From: Candidatus Iainarchaeum sp.
GTDB lineage: Archaea > Iainarchaeota > Iainarchaeia > Iainarchaeales > JAZDEL01
NCBI GenBank assembly: GCA_043808785.1
Contig: JAZDEL010000002.1
Span: 210,001-242,000, forward strand
Direction of reading: 5' to 3'
Length of the DNA stretch: 32,000 nucleotides
The position numbers were made by a program, and so were the translations under genes. Position 1 is the first letter of the stretch. Each line of letters begins with the position of its first letter. Below the pieces are notes generated by a model. The model was not told the origin of the DNA, ran no database searches, and saw only the letters and a program-made list of their open reading frames with translations. Of this stretch, positions 6,537 to 30,771 are shown in pieces.

Positions 6537-6736
6537 TTCTTGGAAACAAAAAACAGGTTCAAATAAAATAAACAAAAACCGGGTTTGCATGGTTTTTGCC
6601 AAGAGGCCGTGCAAAGCCGAAGCCGGCAGTGTGCCGGAGAAATTCACGAGGAGGGATATGTAAAAGATGCTCAACAACTTTTTCTTACAAAGAAAAGGCT
6701 GGCGAAAAGAACAGTCCGCTTGCGCGGACAGGGTTG

Positions 6737-9212: not shown

Positions 9213-9258
9213 AAAATCAACCAAACGGTTGATTTTTATTCAACCAAAGGTATTTATT
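9213..9258 (+). promoter_or_regulatory. Triple half-site palindrome plus TATA cassette, copy 1 (faces the + strand)
   Basis: AAAATCAACCAAACGGTTGATTTTTATTCAACCAAAGGTATTTATT. The TATA ends 24 nt before ATG 9283. Confidence 0.6.
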
Positions 9259-16194: not shown

Positions 16195-16980
16195 ATGAAC
16201 CGTAATTATGAAAAAATTTCGGAAGGAGTTTTAATAAAAAAAGGCCGCTCCTTATCCGATTTAACCCGCAGGCTGGGCGATGCCGAGTACGCCTTCTTCG
16301 ACCTGGACGGAACCATTTACCCCTCCCTCTTTATTCTGGATGTGGCAGATAAGGTTTTTTCCGCGGGGTGCGCCGCTGGCGAAAAAAAGCATATTGAAAA
16401 AAAACGCGCCCTTGATACCCTGGTTTCAGTAAGCAGGCAGTCGGACTTCCGCGAGTTGTATGAAAAGTTCATAGTCCTTCTGGAAGGTGAGAGATGTGAT
16501 ACGTTCTCTTCCTGCGCCAAACAATTTGCAAAAAACCTTTGCCCGGGGGCGAAGGATTTCGTCAGCCTTCTGCACGGCAGGGGCATCAAATGCATCCTTG
16601 TTTCCCTGACTCCCGAGTTTATTGCGGAAATCGTAAAAGCCGAGATTGGTTTTGACGGTTTTTGGAGCATGAAGTACGGCGTTTCCGTTGTTAAAAGCAG
16701 AAAAATGTTTGCAGGCAATTATGTCTTGGATTACCCAAATTTCAGCGATTTTAAAAAAGCGGCATTGGGAAAATACGGCCTTGGCGCCAAAGACAAGGCA
16801 AGAATCATTTTTTCGGGCAATGGTGCCGAGGATTTGGGGCTGTTTGATTCCGCAGGGCTGACAATTGCCGTTAATCCCCACAATGCCCTGCTGAAGCGGA
16901 AAAGTTTCGATATTATTCTTGATGATTTTAAGAACGCACCATGGGCACGCCTAACCGAACTTTTCGGCGGCAGCCCCTGA
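16195..16980 (+). CDS. HAD-superfamily hydrolase (HAD-IB / phosphoserine-phosphatase-like)
   Basis: YAFFDLDGTIY (motif I), VSLTPE, FSGNGAEDLG. ATG 16174 is an alternative start overlapping the previous gene. Confidence 0.6.
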   Translation: MNRNYEKISEGVLIKKGRSLSDLTRRLGDAEYAFFDLDGTIYPSLFILDVADKVFSAGCAAGEKKHIEKKRALDTLVSVSRQSDFRELYEKFIVLLEGERCDTFSSCAKQFAKNLCPGAKDFVSLLHGRGIKCILVSLTPEFIAEIVKAEIGFDGFWSMKYGVSVVKSRKMFAGNYVLDYPNFSDFKKAALGKYGLGAKDKARIIFSGNGAEDLGLFDSAGLTIAVNPHNALLKRKSFDIILDDFKNAPWARLTELFGGSP

Positions 16981-17298
16981 AAAAATTTGGGCAACCCGAC
17001 TCATGTGCGGCATCTCGGCCGATTCCTGTGTAGTTCCATTAATCAGGCTGTTCAGGCATCCGCCGATGTCCTGTGCGGCGTATTTTTTGTTTTTAAAAGT
17101 TATTGCATTTTTGCCCGCCAGTTTATCCGTTTCAAGCGCCACTTCCTCAATCCCGACCCCGCTCCACTCCGCCAACTCAACCCCATTCAGCGGCCCGCGC
17201 CTGTGCAGCGTAACAAGGATGCGTGCAGCCTCCTCGGAAATGATGCCCCGCTCGGCAAGGCGGTAACAGCACAACTCGATTAAATTCACGATTTCCAC
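16951..17298 (-). CDS. Small winged-helix-like protein
   Basis: ILVTLHRRGPLNGVELAEWSGVGIEEVALETDKLAGKNAITFKNKKY. The start is uncertain (GTG 17298, 17289 or 17364). The 3' end overlaps the convergent HAD gene by 30 nt. Confidence 0.4.
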   Translation of the reverse strand: MEIVNLIELCCYRLAERGIISEEAARILVTLHRRGPLNGVELAEWSGVGIEEVALETDKLAGKNAITFKNKKYAAQDIGGCLNSLINGTTQESAEMPHMSRVAQIFSGAAAEKFG

Positions 17299-17299
17299 C

Positions 17300-17412
17300 C
17301 CCGCAAAAAGCGGGCAAATTTCCAACCCAACCAAGCAAAGGATAAATGGACGGTGCGCCCCCACGGCGCCTTACAGGGGGCGCACCTATGCCGGCCCATT
17401 CCCGCAGGAATG
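17300..17412 (-). other. Structured leader or small RNA candidate (three hairpins)
   Basis: Three hairpins: CATTCC-CGCA-GGAATG (17397-17412); an 11-bp perfect GC-rich stem GGTGCGCCCCC-N13-GGGGGCGCACC (17352-17386); and CCCGC-AAAAA-GCGGG (17300-17314). All lie downstream of cassette copy 2 on the minus strand. Confidence 0.3.
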
Positions 17413-17451
17413 AGCCTAAGCCTCTGCCTGAATAACCTGCTGTTTCCTGCC

Positions 17452-17496
17452 TTAATATAGGTTTGGTTGAATAAAAATCAACCATTTGGTTGATTT
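17452..17496 (-). promoter_or_regulatory. Triple half-site palindrome plus TATA cassette, copy 2 (faces the minus strand)
   Basis: The + strand reads TTAATATAGGTTTGGTTGAATAAAAATCAACCATTTGGTTGATTT. Its reverse complement aligns with copy 1. Confidence 0.6.
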
Positions 17497-17563
17497 CCCC
17501 CAACGCAGGGCGTTAAAGTAATTCAACAGAACCCATATAAACAACCCCGCACACATTGCTTTT

Positions 17564-18214
17564 ATGTTCAGGCTCGTGATTTTCGACCTTGACGGCACGC
17601 TTGCCGACACCAAGGAGGGGATTGCCAAAACATTCAACAAGGTACTTGCCGAGCGCGGAATTCCTGCTGTGCCTGCGGAGCGGATTTACAACACCGTGGG
17701 CTTGAGCGTGGAGGAGCTTTTTGATGAACTGGTGGAAAGCGGGAGGCGCGGCAGGGCGGAAATGGTTAATAGGTATCTTGAGATTTACAAGGAGGATGCG
17801 CTTGGAAAGGGCAGGCTATTCCCGGGCGCAAAGGAAGCCCTGTTTGCATTAAAGCGCGCGGGATTGACACTTGCGATTGCAACAGGCAAGAGGCACGAAA
17901 GCGCGGAACTTATGCTGGAAAAGCTGGGAATAAGGAAACTCTTTGCCGCGGTTGTCGCGGTTGATGACGTGGAGAACGGCAAGCCCGCACCGGACATCGC
18001 GGAAAGGGTGCTTGAACTTACGGGAATGCGAAAGGAGGATGCACTGATAGTAGGGGATACTGTCCACGATATCGAGATGGGAAAAAGCGCGGGCATAAAA
18101 ACCTGCGCCGTGACCTATGGCGTGCATTCAAGGGCGGCGCTTGAAAAGGCGGAACCTGATTTTATGGCGGATAAAGCGGGGGAGATAATAACAATAGCAG
18201 GATGCGGGAAATGA
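17564..18214 (+). CDS. HAD-IA phosphatase (phosphoglycolate phosphatase-like)
   Basis: VIFDLDGTLADT, ATGK, VGDTVHDIEMGKSAG. The TATA CATATAAAC lies about 27 nt upstream of the ATG. Confidence 0.8.
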   Translation: MFRLVIFDLDGTLADTKEGIAKTFNKVLAERGIPAVPAERIYNTVGLSVEELFDELVESGRRGRAEMVNRYLEIYKEDALGKGRLFPGAKEALFALKRAGLTLAIATGKRHESAELMLEKLGIRKLFAAVVAVDDVENGKPAPDIAERVLELTGMRKEDALIVGDTVHDIEMGKSAGIKTCAVTYGVHSRAALEKAEPDFMADKAGEIITIAGCGK

Positions 18215-18239
18215 AAAATCAACCGTTTTGTTGATTTTT
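18214..18239. terminator. Degenerate palindrome copy between convergent genes (A5-stem-T5; possible bidirectional terminator)
   Basis: AAAAATCAACC-GTTT-TGTTGATTTTT has one stem mismatch and lacks the third half-site and the TATA. It lies between the HAD stop (18214) and the glyA stop (18251). Confidence 0.35.
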
Positions 18240-18250
18240 CCCAATATGAA

Positions 18251-19492
18251 TCACTTGTAAAAAACAAACTTCTTGCAGAGTTCCCGCACCTCTTTTTTCG
18301 TGTGCTCAACTAAGTGCGCATCGTCGGGTTTTTCTATTATCGCGGAAATCCAGTGTGCAATCTGCGCCATTTCGCCTTCCTTCATGCCGCGTGTTGTCGC
18401 AAGCGGCGTGCCAAGGCGTATCCCAGAAGGATTCATCGGCGTTCCCTTGTCGAAGGGAATTGTGTTCATGTTCACGATTATCCCTGCCCTGTCCAGCTGT
18501 GAAACAATTTCCTTCGCAGGCGCTTTTCTGCCCGAAACGTCCAAAAGGAGCAGGTGGTTGTCAGTGCCGCTGCTCACAACGCGAATACCGAGTTTCTGGA
18601 ATTCCATAGCCATTACCTGTGCGTTCTTCACGACCTGCTTCGCATAATTTTTGAATTCTGGCTTCGCAGCCTCCCCAAGAGCAACCGCTATTGCCGCCGT
18701 TGTGTTATCGTGCGGTCCGCCCTGCATACCGGGGAATACCGCGCGGTCTATTTTTTCCGCGAGCGCGCTTTTGCACATTATAATCGCCCCCCTCGGGCCA
18801 CGCAGGGTTTTATGGGTCGTTGTTGTAACAACATCCATATACGGGAAAGGGGAAGGATGCACGCCCGCGGCAACCAAGCCCGCAATGTGCGCGATGTCCG
18901 CCATTGCATAAGCGCCTATGCCGTGCGCAATTTCGCTAAACCTCTTGAAATCGATTATATGTGAGTATGCAGTGTAGCCACATACAATAAGCTTTGGCCT
19001 CTCCTTTTTAGCAAGCATCTCGATTGCATCGTAATCAAGCATTTCAGTTTTGGCATCAACGCCATAGTGCACCCAGTTGTAAGCCTTACCAGTAATGGAA
19101 ACCTTGTGCCCATGTGATAGGTGCCCGCCATGAGCGAGCGCCATACCCATTGCCTTGTCCCCGAACCTGATGAGTGCGGTATAAACAGCCATATTTGCCG
19201 GTGAGCCCGAAAGCGGCTGCACATTAACGTACTCGGCATTGAAAAGTTCCTTTGCACGAGAAACCGCGAGCGTTTCGATTTCATCTATGATTTCATTGCC
19301 GGCGTAATAGCGCCTCCCAGCGTAGCCCTCTGAATATTTGTTTGTGAGGATTGAACCCATTGCCTCAAGAACAGCGGGCGAGGATAAATTTTCAGAGGCA
19401 ATAAGTTCGATCCCTTGCTCCTGCCTATTCTTTTCAGCCCCAATCAGTTTGAATACTGCGCAATCGGTTTTTTCAAGCATCTGGCGCACCAC
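18251..19492 (-). CDS. glyA: Serine hydroxymethyltransferase
   Basis: LIASENLSSPAVLEAMGS, TNKYSEGYAGRRYYAGNE, and TTTTHKTLRGPRG (the PLP-lysine motif). Confidence 0.92.
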   Translation of the reverse strand: MVRQMLEKTDCAVFKLIGAEKNRQEQGIELIASENLSSPAVLEAMGSILTNKYSEGYAGRRYYAGNEIIDEIETLAVSRAKELFNAEYVNVQPLSGSPANMAVYTALIRFGDKAMGMALAHGGHLSHGHKVSITGKAYNWVHYGVDAKTEMLDYDAIEMLAKKERPKLIVCGYTAYSHIIDFKRFSEIAHGIGAYAMADIAHIAGLVAAGVHPSPFPYMDVVTTTTHKTLRGPRGAIIMCKSALAEKIDRAVFPGMQGGPHDNTTAAIAVALGEAAKPEFKNYAKQVVKNAQVMAMEFQKLGIRVVSSGTDNHLLLLDVSGRKAPAKEIVSQLDRAGIIVNMNTIPFDKGTPMNPSGIRLGTPLATTRGMKEGEMAQIAHWISAIIEKPDDAHLVEHTKKEVRELCKKFVFYK

Positions 19493-19521
19493 ACAAGACA
19501 GAATTGATTAGATATTCATGC

Positions 19522-21231
19522 TCAGTCAACTCTCTTTTTTATCAGATAATCACCCATGGCAAGGTAATCTATATCGGTTTTTAAGAAGGTATTTAGTGCG
19601 TCTTGAGGGGAACACACAATAGGTTCCTGATTATTGAACGAAGTATTTAGCAATAGCGGCACCCCGGTTAACTCCCTAAACTCTTGTATTAATTTGTGAT
19701 ACTTGGGATTTATTTTCTTAGAAACAACCTGTATTCTGCTCGTGCCGTCTTTGTGGACAACTGCAGGGATGTTGTTGCGAAGCGCAGGATAGGTAATTAG
19801 CATCATCTGTCCAGGTTCTTTTGCCTCGGCATTTTTTGGGATGCCAAACCAATTTTCCGCTTCTTCCTCCAGCACGCTGGGGGCAAACGGCCTGAACTCT
19901 TCCCTGTGTTTAATTTTCATATTTATAATATCTTTCATATCAGCACGCCTAGGGTCTGCCAGAAGGGAACGGTTCCCAAGGGCTCTGGGGCCGATTTCCA
20001 TCCTCCCCTGGAACCACCCGACAATTTGGCCATTGCTTAATATCTTAGCGGTTTCCCGCTCAATGTTTTCAATTTTTGCGTATGTGACTTTTTTTTCTTT
20101 ACCCAATACTTTCCAAATCTCCGCATTAGAGAACTTCGGACCGAGGTAAGGGCTGCGCATGTGAAATCTCTTTTTGTTTTTTAACAAAATATTCCAAATG
20201 TAAAGGGCAGACCCTATGGCGGTGCCAGCGTCATTCGCTGCAGGTTGGATGTAGATTCTCTTAAATCCGCTCTCCGATTGAATCCTAAAATTTGCCAAGC
20301 AATTTAATGCCACCCCCCCACCGAGGCAAAGGTTTTCGCTATTTGTTTCCTCCTTCAAGAATTCACACATATGGAGCATGATTTCTTCGGTAGCTTTTTG
20401 GAGTGAACTGGCAATATCGGCATGCCTCCCCCCTATTTCGCCATTTTTGCCCCTTCTTTTTATCCCAAACAATCTTTTGAGTTCACCATAATCCTCTGTC
20501 CTGAACTTCAATATGTCATTATTTACTGCAAAGTGCCCCCTTTCACCTTTTGTTATTATTTGGTCGAATTCCTCTTTGCAGGTGGGGGAACCATATGCCG
20601 ACAACCCCATTACCTTGTACACGTCATATTCGGAAAAACCAAGGAATTTCGAGAGTTTCTCCCACAAAAAACCCAGCGAATTTGGGTAGCATATCTCAGC
20701 TAGCCCCTCAATTTCGTTTCCCCTTCCCCTGCCAAGATAAGAAGTGGTATTTTCCCCTATGCCATCTACCGAAAGTATAGCTGATTCCGCAAACGGAGAC
20801 GGCAAATAAGCCGAAGCAGCATGGCAGAGGTGGTGCTCTAGCCAAATAAATTTCTTGCTTATGCCTGAGCCGGCTAAGTGGCTTAAGTTCCCTGGCACCT
20901 GAACAATTTTTTTGTAAAACAATTCCTCGCCTGCTTGGTTCCCCCAACCCACAGTTTCAAGTTTATCACACATCCTCATCTTGTCAAGCCTTTTTTCGGG
21001 CAACAAAGAGTAGCCAATGTAATCGACATCCCTCAACTTCATCTTCGCCTCGCTCAAGCAAAATGAAATTGCATCCAGGGGAAGCATGTCGGGATTATCT
21101 ACTCTGGATTCCTTTGAATGTTTTATTCTGTTGAATCTTTCTTCTTCAGCCGCCGCTACTATTTCGCCATCTTTGACAAGGCATGCCGCCAGTTCATGGT
21201 AGGGGCCATTTATACCAAGGATTGCAGTCAT
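19522..21231 (-). CDS. NodU/CmcH-family carbamoyltransferase
   Basis: MTAILGINGPYHELAACLVKDGEIVAAAEEERFNRIKH ... LCLGGGVALNCLAN ... IQPAANDAGTAIGSAL ... LGNRSLLADPR ... LLNTSFN. A GGAGGTGA SD lies 5 nt before ATG 21231. Confidence 0.85.
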   Translation of the reverse strand: MTAILGINGPYHELAACLVKDGEIVAAAEEERFNRIKHSKESRVDNPDMLPLDAISFCLSEAKMKLRDVDYIGYSLLPEKRLDKMRMCDKLETVGWGNQAGEELFYKKIVQVPGNLSHLAGSGISKKFIWLEHHLCHAASAYLPSPFAESAILSVDGIGENTTSYLGRGRGNEIEGLAEICYPNSLGFLWEKLSKFLGFSEYDVYKVMGLSAYGSPTCKEEFDQIITKGERGHFAVNNDILKFRTEDYGELKRLFGIKRRGKNGEIGGRHADIASSLQKATEEIMLHMCEFLKEETNSENLCLGGGVALNCLANFRIQSESGFKRIYIQPAANDAGTAIGSALYIWNILLKNKKRFHMRSPYLGPKFSNAEIWKVLGKEKKVTYAKIENIERETAKILSNGQIVGWFQGRMEIGPRALGNRSLLADPRRADMKDIINMKIKHREEFRPFAPSVLEEEAENWFGIPKNAEAKEPGQMMLITYPALRNNIPAVVHKDGTSRIQVVSKKINPKYHKLIQEFRELTGVPLLLNTSFNNQEPIVCSPQDALNTFLKTDIDYLAMGDYLIKKRVD

Positions 21232-21293
21232 GCTATCACCTCCTCGCAACAACATTTCATATGTGGGTCATTTTCATTTGGCGCAGCGCCAGC

Positions 21294-22298
21294 TTACATG
21301 TTTATTACATCTACAACTTCCCTTAGCCAGCCCGACCTGCAACTGCAGTTGAGGCTGTATAATTCTTCCGCACTCTGCGTTTCATTAAATCTCTCGATAG
21401 CGCTGCAAAGTTTTTCCCTGCATTTTTCACAGCTACCTGTGAGTCTGTCCTTTGAAAGATTCTCGTCGCTGAGGCCCACGAAAATGCAACCCCTGCCAGC
21501 AAGCCTTTTCACAACCTCTATGACTGACCAGAGATTTGGCACTTTGTATTCGTTCCTGAAGTATAATTGCTCTATGGGGGCGTTCTCTGGAATGAATACT
21601 GGCTCAAGTGACACCCTTGCATTAACCCCCTGCCTCTTCGCAGTATCAAAAATAAAGTTTGCTGAGTTAACTGCATCAAGGATTGCATACTTCTCGCTCA
21701 CATAAGGGGGCTTTATCAGGATATATGCCATAAAGTCCAGCCCAGTCTCTGCACACAGCCCAAGGCAGTTTTCAAGGGCATTTCTTGAAAGCCCTTTTTT
21801 TATTATCGAATTCCTTATGTAGTCGTCCGAACTTTCAAGGCCTATGCTGAATTCCAGGATTTTGTCCCCCAACAATTCCTTGCTCTTTTGCAGTTTTTCC
21901 TTCGTCACGTATTCTGCCCGTGATTCAATGACTACTTTTTTTATTCGCGGCAACCTTGAAATCTCTCTCATTGCAAAATCCCTGAACTCAGGGGAAATCT
22001 CGCGGTCGTTGTAAAAAGAGCCGAGCGTGAGCAAATCGAGCTGATTTATGTTCTTGTCTTCGGAAAGTACCCCTTCGATGGCCCACCATAGCTGTGCCTT
22101 CATTTCATCATCGCTGACATTCTTGCACGAACTATTTTTGAAGCCACACATTGTGCAGCCCCCACCGGGGGATTTTGCATATTCGCAGCCGTTAGTCCTA
22201 AGGACAAGCATCAATCGCCTTCCCTTTATGCCATTTATGTTTACCTGCGTAACTCTCCAGAATGCTGGCTCAATCTTTTTTGATTGACTCATAGGCAT
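21294..22298 (-). CDS. Radical-SAM-like Fe-S oxidoreductase with non-canonical Cys spacing (resembles the archaeal TIGR01210/RaSEA-type family)
   Basis: RTNGCEYAKSPGGGCTMCGF (C-x9-C-x2-C), a TIM-barrel-like body, and a C-terminal Cys cluster CEKCREKLC ... CSC. The family assignment is from memory of motif style, not from a search. Confidence 0.5.
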   Translation of the reverse strand: MPMSQSKKIEPAFWRVTQVNINGIKGRRLMLVLRTNGCEYAKSPGGGCTMCGFKNSSCKNVSDDEMKAQLWWAIEGVLSEDKNINQLDLLTLGSFYNDREISPEFRDFAMREISRLPRIKKVVIESRAEYVTKEKLQKSKELLGDKILEFSIGLESSDDYIRNSIIKKGLSRNALENCLGLCAETGLDFMAYILIKPPYVSEKYAILDAVNSANFIFDTAKRQGVNARVSLEPVFIPENAPIEQLYFRNEYKVPNLWSVIEVVKRLAGRGCIFVGLSDENLSKDRLTGSCEKCREKLCSAIERFNETQSAEELYSLNCSCRSGWLREVVDVINM

Positions 22299-22323: not shown

Positions 22324-22369
22324 TTAATATATCTTCGGTTGAATAAAAATCAACCAAATGGTTGATTTT
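22324..22369 (-). promoter_or_regulatory. Triple half-site palindrome plus TATA cassette, copy 3 (faces the minus strand)
   Basis: TTAATATATCTTCGGTTGAATAAAAATCAACCAAATGGTTGATTTT. The TATA ends 25 nt before ATG 22298. Confidence 0.6.
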
Positions 22370-22378
22370 GTTTGCCGC

Positions 22379-22705
22379 CTAAGGCAGCCCCTCCAGCCTT
22401 GTTTCATTTTCTCCATACGCCCTGCTCAGTTCCGCGCTGAACTTGTGCATGCTTTCAAGCCATTCAGGACTTATCCTGTAATGCCTGCCCCGCTTTTCAA
22501 TTACGCCCGACGAGTGCAGTTTCTTGATTGCCTTGTAAACGCCCTGCTGTGAGACATCCTGCATGTGCCGCTCCCTTATGCGGTTAAGCATGCCTTTTGC
22601 CGAGAGCGGCCACTCGCTCGCGAGCAGCATGATTATCAGTTCCGATATTGTTTTCTCACCCTCACCTGAAAAAGGGAACCTGATTGTTGCGTCCAGAATT
22701 CTCAT
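22379..22705 (-). CDS. Stand-alone wHTH protein: ninth, short paralogue of the tandem-array family (N-terminal module only)
   Basis: ISELIIMLLASEWPLSAKGMLNRIRERHMQDVSQQGVYKAIKKLHSSGVIEKRGRHYRISPEWL matches the array N-terminal signature (xxWPLSAKxI ... YxAxxK ... G ... Y ... W). Confidence 0.6.
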   Translation of the reverse strand: MRILDATIRFPFSGEGEKTISELIIMLLASEWPLSAKGMLNRIRERHMQDVSQQGVYKAIKKLHSSGVIEKRGRHYRISPEWLESMHKFSAELSRAYGENETRLEGLP

Positions 22706-22728
22706 CAGTTAATAGGGCTTTTCGGGAA

Positions 22729-22773
22729 TTAATATATCTTCGGTTGAAAATTAATCAACCAAATGGTTGATTT
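22729..22773 (-). promoter_or_regulatory. Triple half-site palindrome plus TATA cassette, copy 4 (faces the minus strand)
   Basis: TTAATATATCTTCGGTTGAAAATTAATCAACCAAATGGTTGATTT. The TATA ends 23 nt before ATG 22705. Confidence 0.6.
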
Positions 22774-23288: not shown

Positions 23289-24110
23289 TCATCTCTTGAA
23301 ATAAGCAAATGTCTGCTTCCTGATTTCCTCCGCAATATGCGAATCCTGATAAACCACTACCTTAACTTTTGCTTCCTTTTCGAATATTTCCTCGAAAAGT
23401 TTGTCAACCTTAAGTTCGTCAAGCTTCTTTATTTTCCCATATATTTCATCCCAGCGCTTTTTTATTTCAAAGGAATAGTGGATTTCAACAACAGTATCGC
23501 CGATAACAAGCAAATCAATTGTCGCGGCAACATCTGCGCCGGTTATCTGCCTCACACCCTGCCTGCGCCAGAATTCCGCGCACCATTCATCAACAATGGT
23601 ATCGCCGCGGCAGAGAGAATAGAACTCAAAGTTCTCTGCAAGTTTCGCTATCTGCGCATATTCCTCCCGTGAAACAAAGAGTGGAGTGTAAAGGTGGCAC
23701 CAGTGCAGGCAGACAACAGGCTTTTTGCCATCTACTGCCTGCATTTTCATCAATTTCACAAAAAGCCTGTCTGTTTCGTTTACCGAATCTAAAACAAAAA
23801 CCTTGCCATGCAGTGCTGTTTCCTTCGGGCCATTTTCGTACGAAGATTCCAAGTTGCCGGATATTGCCTTTAACTGCTTTATCCAATCACGATTGAGTTG
23901 GTAGCCGCCATCTTGTTTTTCCATTATGCTGTCCTCTTCCATTTGCTGCAGAGTTTTGTGCACAGCCTGATAAGAAACCCCGCCGTTCATGCGGTTTATT
24001 TCCGAGTGAATCTGCTTCACGCTCAGTGGCCAGCGCTCGGAGAGCAAATTGATTACCTCGTCACGCGTGGATTTTGGCTTTGAACTGGGCAGGGTTATTG
24101 CCTGAGCCAT
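23289..24110 (-). CDS. Array paralogue 8 (type D1): wHTH plus uncharacterised C-terminal domain
   Basis: STRDEVINLLSERWPLSVKQIHSEI ... VSYQAVHKTL ... DWIKQL; KKPVVCLHWCHLYTP; YSLCRGDTIVDEW; VIGDTVV; the C-terminus ends DSHIAEEIRKQTFAYF. A GGAGGTG SD precedes ATG 24110. Confidence 0.7.
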   Translation of the reverse strand: MAQAITLPSSKPKSTRDEVINLLSERWPLSVKQIHSEINRMNGGVSYQAVHKTLQQMEEDSIMEKQDGGYQLNRDWIKQLKAISGNLESSYENGPKETALHGKVFVLDSVNETDRLFVKLMKMQAVDGKKPVVCLHWCHLYTPLFVSREEYAQIAKLAENFEFYSLCRGDTIVDEWCAEFWRRQGVRQITGADVAATIDLLVIGDTVVEIHYSFEIKKRWDEIYGKIKKLDELKVDKLFEEIFEKEAKVKVVVYQDSHIAEEIRKQTFAYFKR

Positions 24111-24975
24111 TTTTTCCACCTCCGAAATGTGCCAAAACCTGATTCCTGAGAACCGAAGCCATGTGCGGGTTTTTTGATATTTTTACGTCTATTTGGACCT
24201 TATTCTTCTTAATCGCATTCTTCAGGAAATATTCATTAAATAAGTCAAGCAGATTTGAGTTCCTGCCGTAAATTTCATCAATGAACTCCCTGCTTTCTTC
24301 GGAATATTTTATTTCATAAATGCCGTCTCCTTGAACTATTGTGTCGCCCTCCATGCTCCCAAGAGGCACGCCTGTTTTAAGGCCGCCGAAGCCTCCAGCA
24401 TAGTACTGTTTTGTTATCCACTTGTCCAGCGGGGAATTGTTCTCCACAAGTGCATATGTGGAATCTTGGGCGGCAACCATCCTCCTGAACAGTTCATAAT
24501 CCAGAAAGTTGAACCTCATGGGCCAGAGCAGGTGCCTGAATAATCCAGTGCCAATGTTGGGGCCGTTGCCGACTGCGACCTTCCTCCTCAACTGCTCGGC
24601 AGTTGAAACCACAAAAATGCTGTAATCGTTGTAAGTCAGATGCACCTCTCCCTTGAAATTCGGGTCAACATCGTATTTGCTGCCGTTTTTGAAATATGCC
24701 TCCTTCAGCCCGTCGGAGAAATTGCCGAGGTTTGTTATCCATGTTTCGCTTAGTTGATAATTCCTGTCCTGCTGCGTTATAACGCCAGCTTCCGCAAGTT
24801 CTGACATGTTCTTGTGTACAGCCTGATAGCTGACTTCCAGCGCGTACTCTCTCTTAATTTGAGTGCAGGCTTCCCTGGCAGTCAGCGGCCACTTTCTGGA
24901 GAGGATTGCAACAATCGCATCCTTTGTCGAGGCAGGCTTGCCCCAAGCGTTGAGCATTGTGAGGTTTATTGGCAT
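24061..24975 (-). CDS. Array paralogue 7 (type A1)
   Basis: STKDAIVAILSRKWPLTAREA ... VSYQAVHKNM ... TWITNL; GNGPNIGTGLFRHLLWPMRFNF; VQGD. The C-terminus is about 20 aa longer than A2 and overlaps the next gene by 50 nt. An AAGGAGG SD is present. Confidence 0.7.
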   Translation of the reverse strand: MPINLTMLNAWGKPASTKDAIVAILSRKWPLTAREACTQIKREYALEVSYQAVHKNMSELAEAGVITQQDRNYQLSETWITNLGNFSDGLKEAYFKNGSKYDVDPNFKGEVHLTYNDYSIFVVSTAEQLRRKVAVGNGPNIGTGLFRHLLWPMRFNFLDYELFRRMVAAQDSTYALVENNSPLDKWITKQYYAGGFGGLKTGVPLGSMEGDTIVQGDGIYEIKYSEESREFIDEIYGRNSNLLDLFNEYFLKNAIKKNKVQIDVKISKNPHMASVLRNQVLAHFGGGKNGSGNNPAQFKAKIHA

Positions 24976-25808
24976 TATTTCGCCTCCTTAAAAAGTGCAA
25001 TTGTCTCTTCTCTTATCTGGTCTGTAACCTCGGGGTCACGGTGGATGTCTATTCTGAATTTTTCAGTTTTTCCCTTGAACAGCCTCCCAAACAGTTTCCC
25101 GAGTTTAAGTTGTGCGAATGTTCTGGCTATTGTGCTTATTCTGTACCAGTCCCTTTTCAGGCGTGCGGGTAAATAAACATAGCCGACATAATCCCCATAG
25201 ACAACGACCTCGGGACTGAACGACGACTCCACGCCCAGTTTTATCTTTGCCCCCAAATCAGCATAGTTGCTTGCAATCATCCTGTCAACTGCAGTGTTGT
25301 TTCTTGCAACCAGATAGAATTTTGTCCTCTTTATGTTTTTCCTTGCCTGGATGTAATCCTCCTCTGAGAAGGGGAAAGTCGGCCATGCGCTCCACCATCT
25401 GCATACCCCGGGCTTGTTTTTTGGGTTTGGAGCATTGTGAAAGCGGTATACTATAAATCTGGAAAAATCTGAAAGGCAGTCAAAACTGAGGCTCGCGCTT
25501 TCTTTTTCCCAGATGTTGTCAAAATTGTTCTTCCCGTTATTGAGGTAAGCATCTTCCAGCCCTGTGCTGAATTTCTTAAGGTTTTTTATCCAGTCGATGC
25601 CTAACGAGTATTTTTTATCCGCAAGCGAGAGCATGCCTTCTTCTTCCATCTGGCTTAGCAGCTTATGTACTGCCTGATAGGATATTTCCGAACTATGCTG
25701 GCGCATCAGGCGCCCGTGGATTTCCTTTGCTGAGAGCGGGAACTCTTTGGCAAGAATCGAAACAACAACTTCTTTTGTCGACCCGCCGGTGCCGTTAAAG
25801 TTCATCAT
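24975..25808 (-). CDS. Array paralogue 6 (type B1)
   Basis: STKEVVVSILAKEFPLSAKEIHGRL ... ISYQAVHKLL ... DWIKNL; NPKNKPGVCRWWSAWP; YLVARNNTAVDRM; YGDYVGYVY; PEVTDQIREETIALF. Confidence 0.7.
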   Translation of the reverse strand: MMNFNGTGGSTKEVVVSILAKEFPLSAKEIHGRLMRQHSSEISYQAVHKLLSQMEEEGMLSLADKKYSLGIDWIKNLKKFSTGLEDAYLNNGKNNFDNIWEKESASLSFDCLSDFSRFIVYRFHNAPNPKNKPGVCRWWSAWPTFPFSEEDYIQARKNIKRTKFYLVARNNTAVDRMIASNYADLGAKIKLGVESSFSPEVVVYGDYVGYVYLPARLKRDWYRISTIARTFAQLKLGKLFGRLFKGKTEKFRIDIHRDPEVTDQIREETIALFKEAK

Positions 25809-26671
25809 GGTGCCTCCCTGTAAATCTGTATCAGCCGCCCGCGCGTCAGTTCCGCGAGTTCCCTGTTTTTTGTGAATGTTACATCAACACTTGCCTTTTG
25901 CTTTGACAGCTTTTGGCTAACAAATTCCTTAAACAGGCTTGATATGCCATCTATTCTTTCATAAACATCATCAATCAGTTTCTTTGTTTCATCAGAAAGC
26001 CTGCATTGGGTTATGGTATCGCCCTGCACCAAGATGTCATCTGCTATATCCTTAACCTCGCCGATTATTTTTGTATTTGGGACGCCCGCCCTTATGTATT
26101 GTTTCCTTATCCACCTGTCAAAAGGAGTGTCCTTTTGCAGCATCGCATAATTGTCAAGCCCGTTTCTTGCCATTCTTGCGAGCAGGCTGAAATCCATAAA
26201 CTTGAAGTTCAGTGGAAACCAGCCATGCCTCAGAATTGCTATGCCGTGTTTTGGCCCGGAACCTACCAGAACATTGCTGGCCATTATTTCCGCCATTCTT
26301 ACATAGAAAATGCTCAAATCGCTGAAATGCATCCTTATGGGCTCCTTGAAATCGGGCTTTATGGCATATTTCCCGCCGTTTTCGGAGCATGTGTTTTTCA
26401 GGTTGCCGAAGAATTCGTGCGATTGTGAAATCCAATCTTTGTTCAACTCAAAATTATTTCCGGTTTTGCATATGATGTTGCCTTCCTCAAGCTGCGCCAG
26501 CGTCTTGTGGACTGCCTGATAGCTGACATTCATGCCGCGCTCCCTCTCCAAGGAATTGCAAATCTCGCGCGCAGTGAGGGGCCATCTTTCGGACAGGATG
26601 GAAATAACCGCGTCTTTGGTGGAGGTTTCTTTTGTGGTGAAATTTGGAATAGTGACTGTTATCGGCATCAT
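25805..26671 (-). CDS. Array paralogue 5 (type A2)
   Basis: STKDAVISILSERWPLTAREICNSL ... VSYQAVHKTL ... DWISQS; GSGPKHGIAILRHGWFPLNFKF; VQGD. ATGA overlaps at both ends. Confidence 0.7.
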   Translation of the reverse strand: MMPITVTIPNFTTKETSTKDAVISILSERWPLTAREICNSLERERGMNVSYQAVHKTLAQLEEGNIICKTGNNFELNKDWISQSHEFFGNLKNTCSENGGKYAIKPDFKEPIRMHFSDLSIFYVRMAEIMASNVLVGSGPKHGIAILRHGWFPLNFKFMDFSLLARMARNGLDNYAMLQKDTPFDRWIRKQYIRAGVPNTKIIGEVKDIADDILVQGDTITQCRLSDETKKLIDDVYERIDGISSLFKEFVSQKLSKQKASVDVTFTKNRELAELTRGRLIQIYREAP

Positions 26672-27504
26672 TTCACCCCCTTGAAATGCTCAAGCGCCTG
26701 CTTCCTTATCTGGTCCGCGAGCCCCGGGTTCCTGTAAGTTACAACATTAATTTTCCCGCAGTTGTTGTGCATAAAGTCAAACCATGCCTTCAGGTCGAAC
26801 TGGTTGATTTTTTTCACATTATTTGCGCTTGACAGCCAGCCGTTCATGAGTACGGGGGGCCAGTGGACCTCCGCAAAGTAATCCCCGTTTATTAGGGTAT
26901 CAAAGCTGTCTATAGAATCGACACCAAGCTTCATCTTGAAGCCGACTTTGCCAAGTATCTGGCCAAATAGCCGGTCAAGTATTGTGTTGCCCTTTACCAG
27001 CGCGTAATATGGGGTGTTAATGCAGGCATCCAAAAGTATTTTCATGTCCTTTTCCGAAAGGCCGATTAGCGGATATGAGCGCCTTGCGAGGATTATCCCC
27101 GGCTTCTTATCGGGGTTGAGCTTTTGGTTGTGCAGATACGGGATGAGAAATTCTGCAAGCCTTATTGGCGAGTCAAATGTCATGTTCGCATGTTCGAACA
27201 TTTGCAGTTCCTCTGCGACTTTTCTCTCTTGATTTAGGTATGCCTCGGCAAGGTTGGCGCTGAACTTCTCGACATCCGAAACCCAGCTGCGGCTGAGGCA
27301 GTATTCTTTACCCGCCTTATCCACTATTCCTTCCTGTTCCATCTCCTGCAATATTTTGTGGGCGCCCTGATACGATATTTCCTTGCTATGTTCCCTTGCC
27401 AACCTTGCATGTATGCTTTTGCCCGTAAGCGGAAACTCCCTGCCGAGCAATTGGATTATGCATTCCTTCGTGTTCTGGCTGTTTGAAAGGAGGACGGTTT
27501 TCAT
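26668..27504 (-). CDS. Array paralogue 4 (type B2)
   Basis: NTKECIIQLLGREFPLTGKSIHARL ... ISYQGAHKIL ... SWVSDV; NPDKKPGIILARRSYP; YALVKGNTILDRL; NGDYFAEVH; NPGLADQIRKQALEHF. Confidence 0.7.
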   Translation of the reverse strand: MKTVLLSNSQNTKECIIQLLGREFPLTGKSIHARLAREHSKEISYQGAHKILQEMEQEGIVDKAGKEYCLSRSWVSDVEKFSANLAEAYLNQERKVAEELQMFEHANMTFDSPIRLAEFLIPYLHNQKLNPDKKPGIILARRSYPLIGLSEKDMKILLDACINTPYYALVKGNTILDRLFGQILGKVGFKMKLGVDSIDSFDTLINGDYFAEVHWPPVLMNGWLSSANNVKKINQFDLKAWFDFMHNNCGKINVVTYRNPGLADQIRKQALEHFKGVK

Positions 27505-28331
27505 TTCATCGCCCCCCTGAAATGCTCCATCGTCTGCCTGCGTATCTGCTCCGCAACCGCGGAATTTTTTATAATAACCAGATTCACGTCAACATTAGTT
27601 TCAAATGTTAACTTATACAATTCCGAAGGGTTAACCGCCCTCACCTTTTCTATCTGTTTGCAGAGTTTGTCCCATTCCTTTACAGCCTCGCCGAAATAGA
27701 TATAGCTGATGTAATCCCCGCCGACCATTACGTCGTGGTCAAATCTGAATTCATGGCTTACCTTTACCTTGCAGCCAAATTGCTTGAACGACTCGATTGA
27801 CATTCTGTCTATGAGATTATCGAAACCTGTCAGGGCGTATGCGCCCTTTTCGCTTATGAACTTTTTTGTAGCCGCATATTCCTCCTCCGACACGGTAATT
27901 ATCGGCCACATGTGGCGCCAGTGCATGACCTTCGGGCATTTATGCTGGCCGGGATATTTAAAGATATAATTCACTACGAATTTCCCCATGGACATCATAG
28001 ATGGAAATGTGAGGTTTACAATGTCTCTTTTCGCCAGTTCCGCAAGATTGTATTTTTCGTCCAGATATGCCGCACCGAATTCCTTTACCCCGTTTACCCA
28101 TTCAGGGTTCAGCACGTATTCCATGCCCTCCTTTTTCAGCACGCCGTCATCCGCCGCCTGCACAACGGCCTTATGCATCGCCTGATACGTCCCCTCAAAA
28201 GCGTGTTCGCGCTTTACGGCATTGTAAATTTCCTTTATCGTAAGGGGCTTTTTCTCCAGAAGCAAGGAGATAATCTTGTCCCTCGTTGATTTGAGGTTCG
28301 GGTTCGGGAAAATGCTGTCTGTGCGCGTCAT
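27501..28331 (-). CDS. Array paralogue 3 (type C1)
   Basis: STRDKIISLLLEKKPLTIKEIYNAV ... GTYQAMHKAV ... EWVNGV; KCPKVMHWRHMWP; YALTGFDNLIDRM; GGDYISYIYFGEAVKEW; NSAVAEQIRRQTMEHF. Confidence 0.7.
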   Translation of the reverse strand: MTRTDSIFPNPNLKSTRDKIISLLLEKKPLTIKEIYNAVKREHAFEGTYQAMHKAVVQAADDGVLKKEGMEYVLNPEWVNGVKEFGAAYLDEKYNLAELAKRDIVNLTFPSMMSMGKFVVNYIFKYPGQHKCPKVMHWRHMWPIITVSEEEYAATKKFISEKGAYALTGFDNLIDRMSIESFKQFGCKVKVSHEFRFDHDVMVGGDYISYIYFGEAVKEWDKLCKQIEKVRAVNPSELYKLTFETNVDVNLVIIKNSAVAEQIRRQTMEHFRGAMK

Positions 28332-29170
28332 TTTTTGTTCACCCCAAACTCCGCAAGGGTGCGCCTGCGTATCTCCTCCGCAACCTTCGCATTCTTCACA
28401 ACCACCACATTCACCTCAATCTCGCTTTCAAGCATGACCTTGTAGAATTCAACCAAATCGATATCCTCCGCGGTTTTTATTTTGCCGCAGATATCGTCCC
28501 ACAATTTAACCGCATCCCCGAAATAGATGTAAGCCACATAATCGCCGTAAACCATGACATCCGGGTCGAACCTGAACACAGGGTTCACCTTTATTTTGCA
28601 GTTATATTTCTTGAACGCCTCCGTAGAAAGGTTGTCGAGAGGGTTGTCGAAACATGTCAGGGTATATCCGCCAAACTTCTCGCAGAACTCCTTCGTTGTC
28701 ACGTATTCTTCTTTTGACAGGGTAATTAATGGCCACATGTGCCTCCAGTGTATTATCATGGGCTGATTTTTTGGGTTCGGGTAACGAGTGTAATAATTTA
28801 TTATAAACCTTGCCATCGATATAAGGTATTTGAAAGTGATGTTGGCAACATCCTTTTCCACGAGCTCGGCAAGGTTGTATTCCTTTTTCAGGTATGTTGA
28901 TTCCAAGTCTGCTCCGTAGTTTTTGATGGAACTTATCCAGTGCTCGCTCAGCATGTAGCCTTTTCCGTCGCGTACAACAACACCCTCCGCAAGCGCCTGC
29001 ATAATCGCCTTATGCGCTGCTTGGTATGTGCCCTCAAAACCGTGCTCCCTACTCAAGCGTCCGCATATTTCCTTTGCGTTCATGGGCCACTTTTCCGAGA
29101 GCAATGATATGATTGAATCGCGCGTTGATTTTGTGCCGCCGTTTATTTTAGGGATTGAAACGGTTTGCAT
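28328..29170 (-). CDS. Array paralogue 2 (type C2)
   Basis: STRDSIISLLSEKWPMNAKEICGRL ... GTYQAAHKAI ... HWISSI; NQPMIIHWRHMWP; YTLTCFDNPLDNL; YGDYVAYIYFGDAVKLW; NAKVAEEIRRRTLAEF. Confidence 0.7.
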   Translation of the reverse strand: MQTVSIPKINGGTKSTRDSIISLLSEKWPMNAKEICGRLSREHGFEGTYQAAHKAIMQALAEGVVVRDGKGYMLSEHWISSIKNYGADLESTYLKKEYNLAELVEKDVANITFKYLISMARFIINYYTRYPNPKNQPMIIHWRHMWPLITLSKEEYVTTKEFCEKFGGYTLTCFDNPLDNLSTEAFKKYNCKIKVNPVFRFDPDVMVYGDYVAYIYFGDAVKLWDDICGKIKTAEDIDLVEFYKVMLESEIEVNVVVVKNAKVAEEIRRRTLAEFGVNKK

Positions 29171-30022
29171 TTATTTCACCCCCTTCCTTTCGTATGCCGC
29201 CTTTGCCTCGCGCCTGAACTTTTCCGCGAGTGCGGGGTTTTTGACTATGAGCGCGTGCACATCAACTTTCGGCTTTAGCACTGTGTCAAAGTATTCATTC
29301 ATGTCAATGTCGTCCGCGCACTTTATTTTTTTGTAGAGCGCATCCATACTATTCTTAAATTCAGGCGGAACGAAAACAAACATTATGAAATCGCCCTGTA
29401 TAAAGGTGTCGTTACCGGCAGAATAGTTGTAGCCGGTTACACACTTCTTTCCGAGCCTGCTGACGTAATCGGAACACCAGCGGTCCATAAATGTATCGTT
29501 TCTGCAGAGCCCGTAATGGAGCTCCTGGGCAAATAGTTTCTTGAGGTTTTCGTGCTCCTCGTTGGTTGCACCAATTATTGAATAAGCATGCTCCCATATG
29601 CAGATGCAGTTCTTTTTCTCAGGGTTAGGAAATTTCATGGAGTATTCGTTCACCAGCCATTTCGTGAACTCGAGAAAATTGTCGAATTTCAGGTGCGCGC
29701 TCCCCTCGAAATTGTTCGGGTCGATTTTGTTTCCGTTCCCGCTGTAGTTTGAATCAAGGTCGCTCCCCATCTGCTTTACCTTTCCTATCCACTCCCTGCT
29801 CAGCGCGTAACCTTTCCCCTCGCGCGAAAGCACGCCCTCCTGCAGCGCCTGTGAAACAGCCTTGTGCACCGCCTGGTAAGTTCCCTCGAATGCGTATGTG
29901 CGCTTCAGGCGGGAAAAAATTTCCTTCGTACCCAAAGGCCACTCCGAACCCAGGAGTGAAACAACCAGTTCCCTTGTGCCCCTGCCGTTCGCAACTGGCA
30001 GAGGCAGAGTCAGTTCGCTCAT
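29171..30022 (-). CDS. Array paralogue 1 (type D2), first gene of the operon
   Basis: GTRELVVSLLGSEWPLGTKEIFSRL ... GTYQAVHKAV ... EWIGKV; NPEKKNCICIWEHAYS; YGLCRNDTFMDRW; IQGDFIMFVF; NPALAEKFRREAKAAY. There is no SD before ATG 30022, unlike all internal genes. Confidence 0.7.
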   Translation of the reverse strand: MSELTLPLPVANGRGTRELVVSLLGSEWPLGTKEIFSRLKRTYAFEGTYQAVHKAVSQALQEGVLSREGKGYALSREWIGKVKQMGSDLDSNYSGNGNKIDPNNFEGSAHLKFDNFLEFTKWLVNEYSMKFPNPEKKNCICIWEHAYSIIGATNEEHENLKKLFAQELHYGLCRNDTFMDRWCSDYVSRLGKKCVTGYNYSAGNDTFIQGDFIMFVFVPPEFKNSMDALYKKIKCADDIDMNEYFDTVLKPKVDVHALIVKNPALAEKFRREAKAAYERKGVK

Positions 30023-30103
30023 CTTGGCACTAACTATATTTATCTGCAGGGAAATGGTTATAAAGTAAATTTTTTTGGCAAGAATGGATAAATACTTAAC
30101 TTT

Positions 30104-30154
30104 TTAATGGTTTTTGTGCATAATTGGTTTAAAAAATAACCAAAAAACCATTAA
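30104..30154. promoter_or_regulatory. 12-nt inverted repeat (TTAATGGTTTTT ... AAAAACCATTAA) in the divergent promoter region
   Basis: Perfect 12-nt arms at 30104-30115 and 30143-30154 enclose a nested GGTT-TAAAAAAT-AACC (30126-30141). A further AAATGGTTA lies at 30052-30060. Confidence 0.45.
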
Positions 30155-30194
30155 TTTGGAGATTATTTAGCCGAGGAAAGCAGGGTTATGTAGT

Positions 30195-30286
30195 AAGTTT
30201 TTGCACGGGCACAGGAATTTTTTGCACCGGGTGCGGCAATTTTTTGCGCAGGAAGGCTGAAAGCCGGGCACGGTAATTTTTTTCAC
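30195..30286 (+). promoter_or_regulatory. Phased direct repeats (AATTTTTTGCAC-type) upstream of the Lrp/AsnC gene
   Basis: AAGTTTTTGCAC (30195), AATTTTTTGCAC (30216), AATTTTTTGCGC (30238) and AATTTTTTTCAC (30275), with start-to-start spacing of 21, 22 and 37 nt. The first two units also share GGGCACAGGAA / GGGTGCGGCAA tails. Confidence 0.45.
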
Positions 30287-30300: not shown

Positions 30301-30771
30301 ATGAACAAAAACACCGCTGTACAGCTGGATGAAGCGGACATAAAAATCCTGAACGCGATGCTCGCAATGCGCGAGACTGGCTACACTGCGATAGGGAAAA
30401 ATCTCGGCCTCACCCCGGCGGCGGTGCAGAAGCGCGTGAAGAGGATGCGTGCGCGCGGAATTTTCCTCGGCACCGTGCCCGTGCTCGACCTTGCGAAAAT
30501 CGGCTACGGCCTTACCGCAATAATAAAGGTCTCGGTTTCGCAGGGAAAGCTTGTGGAGGAGGCGCAGCGCTGGACCCAAAAGCGCAACACATGCTCGGTT
30601 TACAGGATTACCGGGGATTACGACATCATAGTGATAGGCAAGTTCAAGGACATGGACGAGCTGAACGACTTCACCACGGAGATGAACAGGGAGGGCTGGG
30701 TTACAAAAACAAACACGAGCCTGACCTTCCAGATTGCGCAGGAATCCGTGAACCCGAAGGTTATTTACTGA
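30301..30771 (+). CDS. lrp: Lrp/AsnC-family transcriptional regulator
   Basis: LDEADIKILNAMLAMRETGYTAIGKNLGLTPAAVQKRVKRMRARGI (HTH) followed by an RAM/ACT-like domain (AIIKVSV ... VYRITGDYDIIVIGKFKDMDELNDF). Confidence 0.85.
   Translation: MNKNTAVQLDEADIKILNAMLAMRETGYTAIGKNLGLTPAAVQKRVKRMRARGIFLGTVPVLDLAKIGYGLTAIIKVSVSQGKLVEEAQRWTQKRNTCSVYRITGDYDIIVIGKFKDMDELNDFTTEMNREGWVTKTNTSLTFQIAQESVNPKVIY

Follow-up and report, generated by a model that had tools for sequence, protein, structure and literature searches.

A candidate regulon cassette of Iainarchaeota: an operator of three half-sites fused to a TATA box

Introduction

In a stretch of 32,000 nt from the genome of Candidatus Iainarchaeum sp. 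(assembly GCA_043808785.1, contig JAZDEL010000002.1, positions 210,001 to 242,000; this whole stretch is referred to below as the window), a cassette of about 45 nt recurs in front of several genes. It joins three TCAACC/GGTTGA half-sites, arranged as TCAACC-N4-GGTTGA-N7-TCAACC, to a TATA box, and it raises the question of whether such a sequence is a regulatory device, an extended core promoter, a mobile module or a transcription terminator. The explanation that we favour, with a probability of about 0.7, is that the cassette represents a composite cis-regulatory module of an Iainarchaeota/Diapherotrites regulon, in which an operator is fused at a fixed register to a strong core promoter. It is based on the observed sequence conservation, the register of the TATA box, the intergenic position and orientation of the copies and the recurrence of downstream genes; the transcription start site, the protein that would bind, and whether it activates or represses are inferred.

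Iainarchaeota and other DPANN archaea are largely uncultivated, and the cassette offers a concrete and testable handle on their regulation, namely, a 29-nt operator with 18 invariant bases, a defined promoter geometry, and short lists of targets and of candidate binders, the latter accessible as recombinant proteins. If the proposed reading is true, the cassette could serve as a marker for the annotation of promoters and regulons in metagenome-assembled genomes of DPANN archaea, and as a portable, strong and regulated promoter part.

The cassette in the window

The pattern of three half-sites has four exact matches in the window, with 0 mismatches, while 100 dinucleotide-preserving shuffles of the window yielded 0 matches with up to 3 mismatches allowed. 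In all four copies (Table 1) a TATA-like octamer is located 5 nt past the third half-site, and in three of them an ATG follows 23-25 nt after the TATA (9283, 22298 and 22705), a spacing already given in the original prediction, which was made from the sequence of the window. Its count of four full copies and one degenerate copy is borne out, and the sequences and coordinates that it quoted agree with the window.

Copy 4 faces the ATG at 22705 of famC, a gene for a short protein with a winged helix-turn-helix (wHTH) domain, and copy 3, which begins 10 nt past the famC stop codon, faces the ATG at 22298 of an operon headed by a radical S-adenosylmethionine (rSAM) gene. The BRE (B recognition element) and TATA box sequences are identical in copies 3 and 4, GAAGATATATTAA, and copies 2 and 3 have 57 nt in common at 89% identity, reaching beyond the TATA box. 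The degenerate copy, TCAACCGTTTTGTTGA with A5/T5 flanks, sits between the convergent ends of a gene of the HAD family and glyA, and neither a third half-site nor a TATA box is present on either side of it. It may represent the remnant of a cassette, a regulator site standing alone, or a terminator that works in both directions.

Conservation across genomes

Contigs of one genome per GTDB species were scanned with the three half-sites only, the TATA box not being part of the query. At least 116 loci were listed (cited below as L005 and so on), at least 40 of which were classed as archaeal and came from at least 30 species-level assemblies. Among the matches listed, the archaeal loci are mostly labelled Iainarchaeum, Diapherotrites or 'archaeon', and a few are labelled Micrarchaeota or Aenigmatarchaeota or lie on contigs with other labels. 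A TATA motif, the background rate of which is 0.0027 per position, was found at exactly 5 nt past the third half-site in 30 of 43 archaeal but in 0 of 77 non-archaeal hits among the matches listed. Since it was absent from the query, its register independently confirms the composite cassette. A complete metagenome scan, in which the query was the cassette together with the TATA box, produced 51 further loci, and about 98 unique copies are available overall, from at least 30 species-level archaeal genomes with a G+C content of 29-51%.

The consensus of the 98 unique copies is aaaAATCAACCA.tTGGTTGAtt...atTCAACCg.AggTATATTAat.c.c.aaacag.atT, in which the 18 half-site bases are invariant and the flanks diverge. 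The TATA positions carry 1.0-1.8 bits, and the consensus of the 5 nt before the TATA is g.Agg, which may be BRE-like, with A in 83% of the copies at position -3 from the TATA. In one low-GC lineage TCTACC replaces the third half-site. Divergent gene pairs in L019, L044, L063 and L084 share a symmetric form, GGTTGA-N7-TCAACC-N4-GGTTGA-N7-TCAACC, with a TATA box on each side, while a third half-site with a TATA but without the palindrome was never found within the loci examined.

The copies are intergenic: among the 47 that were checked, 41 have no open reading frame (ORF) of 70 aa or more running across them, the ORFs that span the others seem spurious, and no annotated gene spans any copy. The start codon is located 26-60 nt past the third half-site for most targets and 100-200 nt past it for the small wHTH gene famAB, a geometry implying that most target mRNAs would be leaderless or short-leadered. 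Long contigs (1.19 Mb, 743 kb, 510 kb, 375 kb and 279 kb) contain one or two strict copies each, and such a low number per near-complete genome points to a small regulon rather than to promoters in general. The original prediction of a dedicated regulon with leaderless promoters, in which the regulator binds just upstream of BRE and TATA, is supported by this cross-genome evidence, i.e. the same register with the TATA in at least 30 species of the Iainarchaeota type, the intergenic location and the orthologous genes downstream.

Two further patterns were noticed in the collection. In 23 of the 98 copies, copies 2 (17444-17440) and 3 (22316-22312) of the window among them, an AACAG box occurs at a fixed offset, +49 to +53 from the first half-site and about -15 to -11 relative to the predicted start; its information content is low, and it could either serve as a second regulatory site or belong to some promoter-proximal element. 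The pattern of three half-sites is also found in Pseudonocardiaceae (Actinosynnema, Saccharothrix; L007, L037, L051, L057, L074, L087 and L101), in a conserved high-GC context, ggggTCAACCGATGGGTTGAACCnGGGTCAACCggaaccaccaggt, without a TATA box, and presumably represents an unrelated bacterial operator.

Target genes

The first downstream ORFs of all copies were clustered. The most common target is famAB (about 25 cases, including the low-GC lineage), which encodes a stand-alone winged-helix protein. Proteins with signal-peptide-like N-termini account for about 25 targets, a 170-aa protein with a TrmB domain (PF01978) for 12, and genes of the famC/arr type for 4, arr being a family of longer wHTH proteins encoded in the window by a tandem array. 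Other recurrent targets are a 470-aa unknown protein (4 cases), a gene resembling class I fructose-bisphosphate (FBP) aldolase, recognised by eye from its sequence (3 cases), and a SelD-like gene (2 cases).

For famAB, homologues were also gathered with a protein profile and four loci were fetched; the cassette is present upstream of famAB in all four of these orthologues, obtained by protein similarity alone. Loci in which a famAB orthologue carries the cassette include L005, L032, L082, L084, L118-L121 and L173. The secreted-protein gene behind copy 1 codes for 473 aa, with no Pfam or NCBIfam match; its ATG lies 24 nt past the TATA, the gene is probably leaderless, and its orthologue in L086 bears the same cassette.

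The rSAM operon comprises genes for a RaSEA-like radical SAM protein, which scores 207.5 bits against TIGR01210 (cut-off 212), a NodU/CmcH-type carbamoyltransferase and serine hydroxymethyltransferase (SHMT; glyA). As a conserved target this operon was rejected. The rSAM orthologue in L174 has no cassette, and in L173, where the rSAM protein is 82% identical to that of the window, the genes are arranged in the order rSAM, aminotransferase, cassette, famC, cassette, leader, famAB, so that the cassette after famC would drive famAB. This order indicates that the conserved unit is cassette-famC-cassette. The succession of famC and a cassette is kept in L173, L158 and L168, and the gene behind the second cassette varies: L173 has famAB there, L158 and L168 have a gene for a secreted protein, and the window has the rSAM operon. 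A cassette in front of famC is also found in L075, L127 and L173. Of the genes originally proposed as the regulon, therefore, the secreted protein (L086), the short wHTH gene (L075, L127 and L173) and the small wHTH gene with its leader (more than 20 loci) are retained, while the rSAM-carbamoyltransferase-glyA operon is to be regarded as a lineage-specific member.

In L158 and L168 the operon order is cassette, famAB, famC, cassette, secreted protein, and the famC-type ORF ends ...NQPFG* at a TGA inside the GGTTGA half-site (L158, about 1740-1760; L168, about 1264-1282). As this TGA is used as the stop codon, the coding sequence extends at its 3' end into the operator palindrome in both loci.

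The search gave only two close relatives of archaeal type for the rSAM protein of the window, at 82% and 70% identity. Homologues further down the list, with about 50% identity, are in many cases labelled bacterial (Aminicenantes, Acidobacteriota, 'bacterium'), and the gene may have been acquired by horizontal transfer. In the window it is paired with the NodU/CmcH-type carbamoyltransferase and SHMT, not with ArcS. The rSAM protein of L014 is unrelated to it.

Candidate regulators

Three wHTH families are linked to the cassette: arr/famC, the 170-aa TrmB-type protein and famAB. The arr proteins consist of an N-terminal wHTH domain, a long helix and a PLD/Nuc-like C-terminal domain, the last of which is absent from the short paralogue FamC. 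Neither arr nor famC reaches any Pfam or NCBIfam cut-off, and a sequence search of arr against PDB gave nothing significant. In a Foldseek search, the best match of the AlphaFold2 model of arr5 (predicted local distance difference test score, pLDDT, 83.5) was TrmBL2 (5bpi, E = 9e-8), an architecture-level match with low TM-scores of 0.32-0.34, and the C-terminal domain is similar to nucleases of the PLD/Nuc type. At least 2,292 arr clusters at 50% identity (E <= 1e-3) were retrieved when 1.84 billion representatives were searched with a profile; arr is a large uncharacterised family, often arranged in tandem, with a TrmBL2-like fold and no Pfam model. An arr array of at least four paralogues is also present in L117.

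The most conserved stretch of arr/famC is the recognition helix, (S/T)YQAVHK, in a family whose members are otherwise 20-35% identical; the form (V/I)(S/T)YQAVHK is kept in 141 of 149 of the top representatives retrieved, which are mutually less than 50% identical. Such an invariant helix predicts one common DNA target, and the arr/famC family appears to be the most likely binder of the cassette because its recognition helix, like the half-site, is almost invariant. Genes of this family lie within a few kb of a cassette in 9 of 41 and 17 of 55 cassette-bearing loci, and several arr genes (in L060, L054 and L090) begin at a distance of 56-95 nt from the palindrome, on its side away from the TATA box. 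In the window famC, a target of the cassette as well as a candidate binder, is flanked by copies 4 and 3.

The 170-aa target protein, which passes PF01978 with 35.8 and 28.5 bits (cut-off 25.6), is the second candidate. FamAB was down-weighted, since a half-site without variation should be read by a recognition helix that is equally invariant. The helix taken to have this role in FamAB is acidic, as judged by eye, and poorly conserved, and the alignment of 31 members contains no nearly invariant column. The best matches of FamAB are generic HTH domains of the MarR, Lrs14 or Lrp type, below threshold.

The leader of famAB

Downstream of copy 2, famAB is predicted to have a 5' leader of about 140 nt that folds into two hairpins, with a minimum free energy (MFE) of -71.1 kcal/mol (z = -3.56). 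It comprises a stem around a small hairpin, a long GC-rich hairpin and then a Shine-Dalgarno-like GGGGG. Five orthologous leaders fold into similar two-hairpin shapes, as compared by eye on single-sequence MFE folds, and z ranges from -2.8 to -4.4 in five of the six leaders, the window included, with -1.6 in L005. The primary sequence differs among lineages, the shape being alike by eye. The famAB leader may therefore be a conserved cis-regulatory RNA, as these fold models suggest. RNAalifold predicted 0 pairs on 13 famAB leaders, for which the MAFFT alignment was too poor. The window had no match to Rfam at gathering thresholds, and a permissive scan of 17150-17520 returned one chance-level match only (E = 3.7). 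In the low-GC lineage (L081, L118-L120, L147 and L172) the place of the leader is taken by a leaderless ORF of 52-63 aa.

Proposed mechanism and alternative explanations

Read from 5' to 3', the module consists of an A-rich flank, a palindrome with half-site centres 10 bp apart, a 7-nt spacer, the third TCAACC, 5 nt of BRE-like sequence and the TATA box, TATATTAA. The start of transcription is predicted at about 23-26 nt past the TATA, which places the centre of the palindrome about 57 nt upstream of the start; the predicted start coincides with the ATG of three window genes, and their mRNAs would thus be leaderless. A dimeric winged-helix regulator would occupy the palindrome, and a further subunit or dimer the third half-site abutting the BRE, where it could help or hinder TFB/TBP. 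By analogy, activation is slightly favoured over repression, because the site lies upstream of BRE and TATA, the position from which TrmBL1 activated two of three promoters; repression by occlusion of the BRE is plausible, given the near-consensus TATA box. The regulon would be small, made up of famC, famAB, the TrmB-type regulator of 170 aa, proteins that are secreted or located at the surface, and a few enzymes, to which the lineage of the window would add the RaSEA-like rSAM-carbamoyltransferase-glyA operon.

A more far-reaching version, which we regard as rather unlikely, sees many sensors acting at one operator. The arr paralogues, with an almost invariant recognition helix and divergent PLD-like C-terminal domains, would compete or heterodimerise at TCAACC, with FamC as a constitutive competitor or partner, and many signals would be integrated at a few promoters. 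Through these promoters the proteins of the cell surface and the secreted proteome of genome-reduced DPANN archaea would be controlled, along with a cascade of small regulators, possibly in response to a host.

Several points weigh against the regulon reading. Promoter activity and the start site are deduced from sequence geometry, the binder is ambiguous among at least three linked wHTH families, and the enrichment of arr near cassettes is approximate. The census of neighbouring genes is biased, its loci having been gathered via the motif, and the famAB and rSAM orthologue tests are the only ones independent of it. Copies within one genome are more alike at the 'free' positions (N7, 0.64 vs 0.39; N5, 0.67 vs 0.42; 19 pairs), which could reflect duplication and not selection alone, and three window copies and the degenerate copy resemble hairpin-plus-T5 terminators just past stop codons. 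Finally, the promoter region of the arr array itself (30023-30200) contains no cassette and carries a different inverted repeat of the AACCA type, TTAATGGTTTTT...AAAAACCATTAA, with the inner pair TGGTTA...AAACCA. This repeat is also conserved upstream of the L117 array (L117 1-275); its AACCA core resembles the inner part of the half-site, and it may be a related operator.

Under another explanation, the three half-sites belong to the core promoter, as an extension specific to the lineage. A basal factor, e.g. a paralogue of TFB/TBP or an abundant chromatin-like protein of the TrmBL2 type, would read them in place of a gene-specific regulator that responds to a signal, and they would mark a class of strong promoters. 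This explanation would agree with the third half-site abutting the BRE at an invariant 5 nt from a near-consensus TATA, with the functional heterogeneity of the targets, and with the best fold match of arr, TrmBL2, being described as a chromatin protein (PMC4158304). However, the presence of only one or two strict copies in near-complete genomes makes this improbable, as does the lack of a cassette at most window promoters, e.g. those of the HAD gene and the arr array. Moreover, the targets include many regulators, a feature typical of a specific autoregulated circuit, and no cassette-linked TFB/TBP gene appeared in the loci examined, where no systematic search for one was made. A duplicated or mobile promoter module that spreads within genomes, so that conservation is due to copying and not to selection, is harder still to reconcile with a cassette that is kept before orthologous genes in species from 29% to 51% G+C, with 18 invariant half-site bases against diverging flanks, a sign of functional constraint, and with a very low copy number. 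No copy is located inside an annotated gene, no transposase was noticed, and the aligned flanks, in which target-site duplications were not searched for, show no terminal repeats beyond the operator palindrome. On the other side stand the within-genome likeness at free positions, the likeness of copies 2 and 3 over 57 nt, the identity of copies 3 and 4 at the BRE and TATA box, and the different genes found after the famC-proximal cassette in relatives. These features suggest occasional local duplication or capture of a promoter, or lineage-specific preferences, and this is the part of the originally proposed mobile promoter module that stands; mobility as such finds little support, near-complete genomes having one or two strict copies, with no element ends.

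The cassette could also be taken for a terminator of the upstream gene, formed by the A-tract, palindrome and T-tract and bidirectional where genes converge, with an ordinary promoter next to it. The window copies do fold as RNA hairpins of 10-11 bp (-12.8 to -16.7 kcal/mol, z = -2.6 to -4.0), followed by U5 in copies 1-3, and 14 of 47 copies begin 5-35 nt past a stop codon on the same strand; the palindrome-only copy lies exactly between convergent gene ends with T5 on both strands, and the famC ORF of L158 and L168 ends within the palindrome. As the primary role, termination is nevertheless very improbable, because neither invariant half-sites, nor a third half-site, nor a fixed 5-nt distance to the TATA is needed for it. 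Archaeal termination requires oligo-T but no specific hairpin sequence, and many genomes have an N7 spacer that is not rich in T (TTGCCAA, GAGAAAAG, AAAAAAA). A preference for T, at about 65% of the copies, is confined to the first two spacer positions. Many copies, besides, have a divergent gene upstream and not a gene end. The idea of a terminator, which was part of the original prediction, thus fits the hairpins and T5 of the window copies and fails across the 98 copies, in which the T-run is not conserved; a secondary terminator role is possible in this genome, especially for the palindrome-only copy. A bacterial sigma-70 promoter, with TTGATT as -35, a 16-nt spacer and TATATT as -10, to which copies 2, 3 and 4 score 9/12 in a consensus scan, is effectively ruled out by the taxonomic context, and the match is regarded as a coincidence. 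The window encodes archaeal proteins (PcrB/GGGP synthase, KaiC, V4R, RaSEA-like protein, exosome RNase PH, Pcc1 and prefoldin), which are deposited under the name Candidatus Diapherotrites archaeon (locus tags V1676_, contig of 269.6 kb), the cassette loci with a TATA are all archaeal (0 of 77 non-archaeal hits have one, among the matches listed), and sigma-70-like sites are no more numerous in the window than in shuffles. The three sigma-70-like stretches could be active promoters if cloned in E. coli.

Layout and other features of the window

The coordinates of the cassette copies, targets and other features are collected in Table 1. Three direct repeats of about 22 nt (CGGGCACnGnAATTTTTTGCAC), located between the arr array and a divergent gene for an Lrp/AsnC-type regulator (PF13404 and PF01037), may be Lrp binding sites. 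A 190-aa ORF without a Pfam match lies upstream of a gene for an AbiEii-type nucleotidyltransferase toxin (PF08843) and overlaps it at its 3' end, and the two may represent a type IV toxin-antitoxin pair. A 73-nt direct repeat (85% identity), with copies 154 nt apart, is found at or upstream of the start of a V4R-domain gene.

Table 1. Features of the window and famAB leaders of other loci (window coordinates unless a locus is given)
Feature	Position	Strand	Description
Cassette copy 1	9213-9258	+	exact match 9217-9245; half-sites 9217-9222, 9227-9232, 9240-9245
Core promoter of copy 1	9246-9258	+	BRE-like AAAGG 9246-9250; TATA-like TATTTATT 9251-9258; faces ATG 9283
Cassette copy 2	17452-17496	-	exact match 17465-17493; half-sites 17493-17488, 17483-17478, 17470-17465; TATATTAA 17459-17452
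Cassette copy 3	22324-22369	-	exact match 22337-22365; half-sites 22365-22360, 22355-22350, 22342-22337; TATATTAA 22331-22324
Cassette copy 4	22729-22773	-	exact match 22742-22770; half-sites 22770-22765, 22760-22755, 22747-22742; TATATTAA 22736-22729
Degenerate copy	18214-18239		palindrome only (18219-18234); AAAAATCAACCGTTTTGTTGATTTTT, 1 mismatch
Secreted-protein target gene	9283-10704	+	473 aa, N-terminal signal-peptide-like segment
famAB	16951-17289	-	about 112 aa, stand-alone winged-helix; GTG start 17289, alternative 17298
Predicted structured 5' leader of famAB	17290-17433	-	about 140 nt with two hairpins, downstream of copy 2
HAD gene	17564-18214		converges with glyA
rSAM operon	18251-22298	-	target in the lineage of the window
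glyA	18251-19492	-	serine hydroxymethyltransferase, rSAM operon
Carbamoyltransferase gene	19522-21255	-	NodU/CmcH type, rSAM operon
rSAM gene	21294-22298	-	RaSEA-like radical SAM protein, TIGR01210 below cut-off
famC	22379-22705	-	108 aa, short arr paralogue, wHTH plus helix, without C-terminal domain
arr array	23289-30022	-	eight tandem, tightly packed paralogues, 276-304 aa
Inverted repeat of the arr promoter	30086-30115 and 30143-30172		arms of the AACCA-type repeat
Direct repeats	30206-30286		three, about 22 nt each
Lrp/AsnC-type regulator gene	30301-30771	+	PF13404 and PF01037
AbiEii-type toxin gene	11360-12112	-	PF08843
190-aa ORF	12096-12668	-	upstream of the toxin gene
73-nt direct repeat	6736-6808 and 6890-6962	+	85% identity
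V4R-domain gene	6831-7463		
Sigma-70-like stretches	17452-17481, 22324-22353, 22729-22758	-	within copies 2, 3 and 4
famAB leader, L005	7750-7841	-	
famAB leader, L082	1907-2002	+	
famAB leader, L049	3154-3265	-	
famAB leader, L034	2593-2695	-	
famAB leader, L130	201-304	+	
famAB leader, L173	about 2340-2485		

Comparison with known systems

A full-text literature search yielded no description of the cassette motif, of a regulon in Iainarchaeota or of relevant DPANN promoter motifs. Among known systems the closest is the regulon of the Thermococcales glycolytic motif (TGM) and its regulator TrmBL1 (Tgr), of which the cassette is not a member. TrmBL1 binds the palindrome TATCAC-N5-GTGATA, and its position relative to the promoter sets activation or repression: in vitro, a site upstream of BRE and TATA activated 2 of 3 promoters and a site downstream of them repressed 9 of 9 (PMC4706686, PMC4158304). 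As in the TGM system, a palindromic 6-N-6 operator next to the BRE and TATA box was found computationally before a set of genes across a lineage, and the regulator carries a C-terminal domain besides its wHTH and a helix for dimerisation. The candidate binders of the cassette resemble TrmB either in their fold (arr) or through a Pfam match (PF01978, in the 170-aa family), and the class I FBP-aldolase-like gene recurs as a cassette target in 3 loci. However, the half-site sequence is different and the spacing is N4, not N5, so that the cassette conforms to neither of the TrmB operator consensus sequences, TATCAC-N5-GTGATA and TACT-N3-AGTA. Unlike the TGM, it has an obligatory third half-site and always lies upstream of BRE and TATA in a single fixed register; its targets are mostly regulators and secreted proteins, not sugar metabolism, its lineage is DPANN, and arr has no significant Pfam TrmB match.

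The operator of SurR in Pyrococcus furiosus, GTTn3AAC with the extended form GTTn3AACn5GTT, likewise combines a palindrome with a third half-site oriented as the first, and SurR activates from a site upstream of BRE and TATA and represses from a site downstream. It differs from the cassette in its unrelated sequence, in its regulator, an ArsR-like redox-switch wHTH protein, and in having no known fixed fusion to a TATA box.

Activators of the TFB-RF1 (PF1088) and Ptr2 type bind a site abutting the BRE and recruit TFB or TBP (PMC5937170). The regulator site of the cassette likewise directly abuts the BRE; the promoters of those activators have a weak BRE and TATA box, whereas the TATA of the cassette is near-consensus, and the operators and protein families are not the same.

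Bacterial class II activators and operators of the MarR type resemble the proposed arrangement in that a dimeric wHTH protein binds a palindrome of about 16 bp beside or overlapping the core promoter and the regulator gene is itself preceded by a site. The cassette differs from them in the archaeal TBP/TFB machinery, the three half-sites and the predicted leaderless mRNAs.

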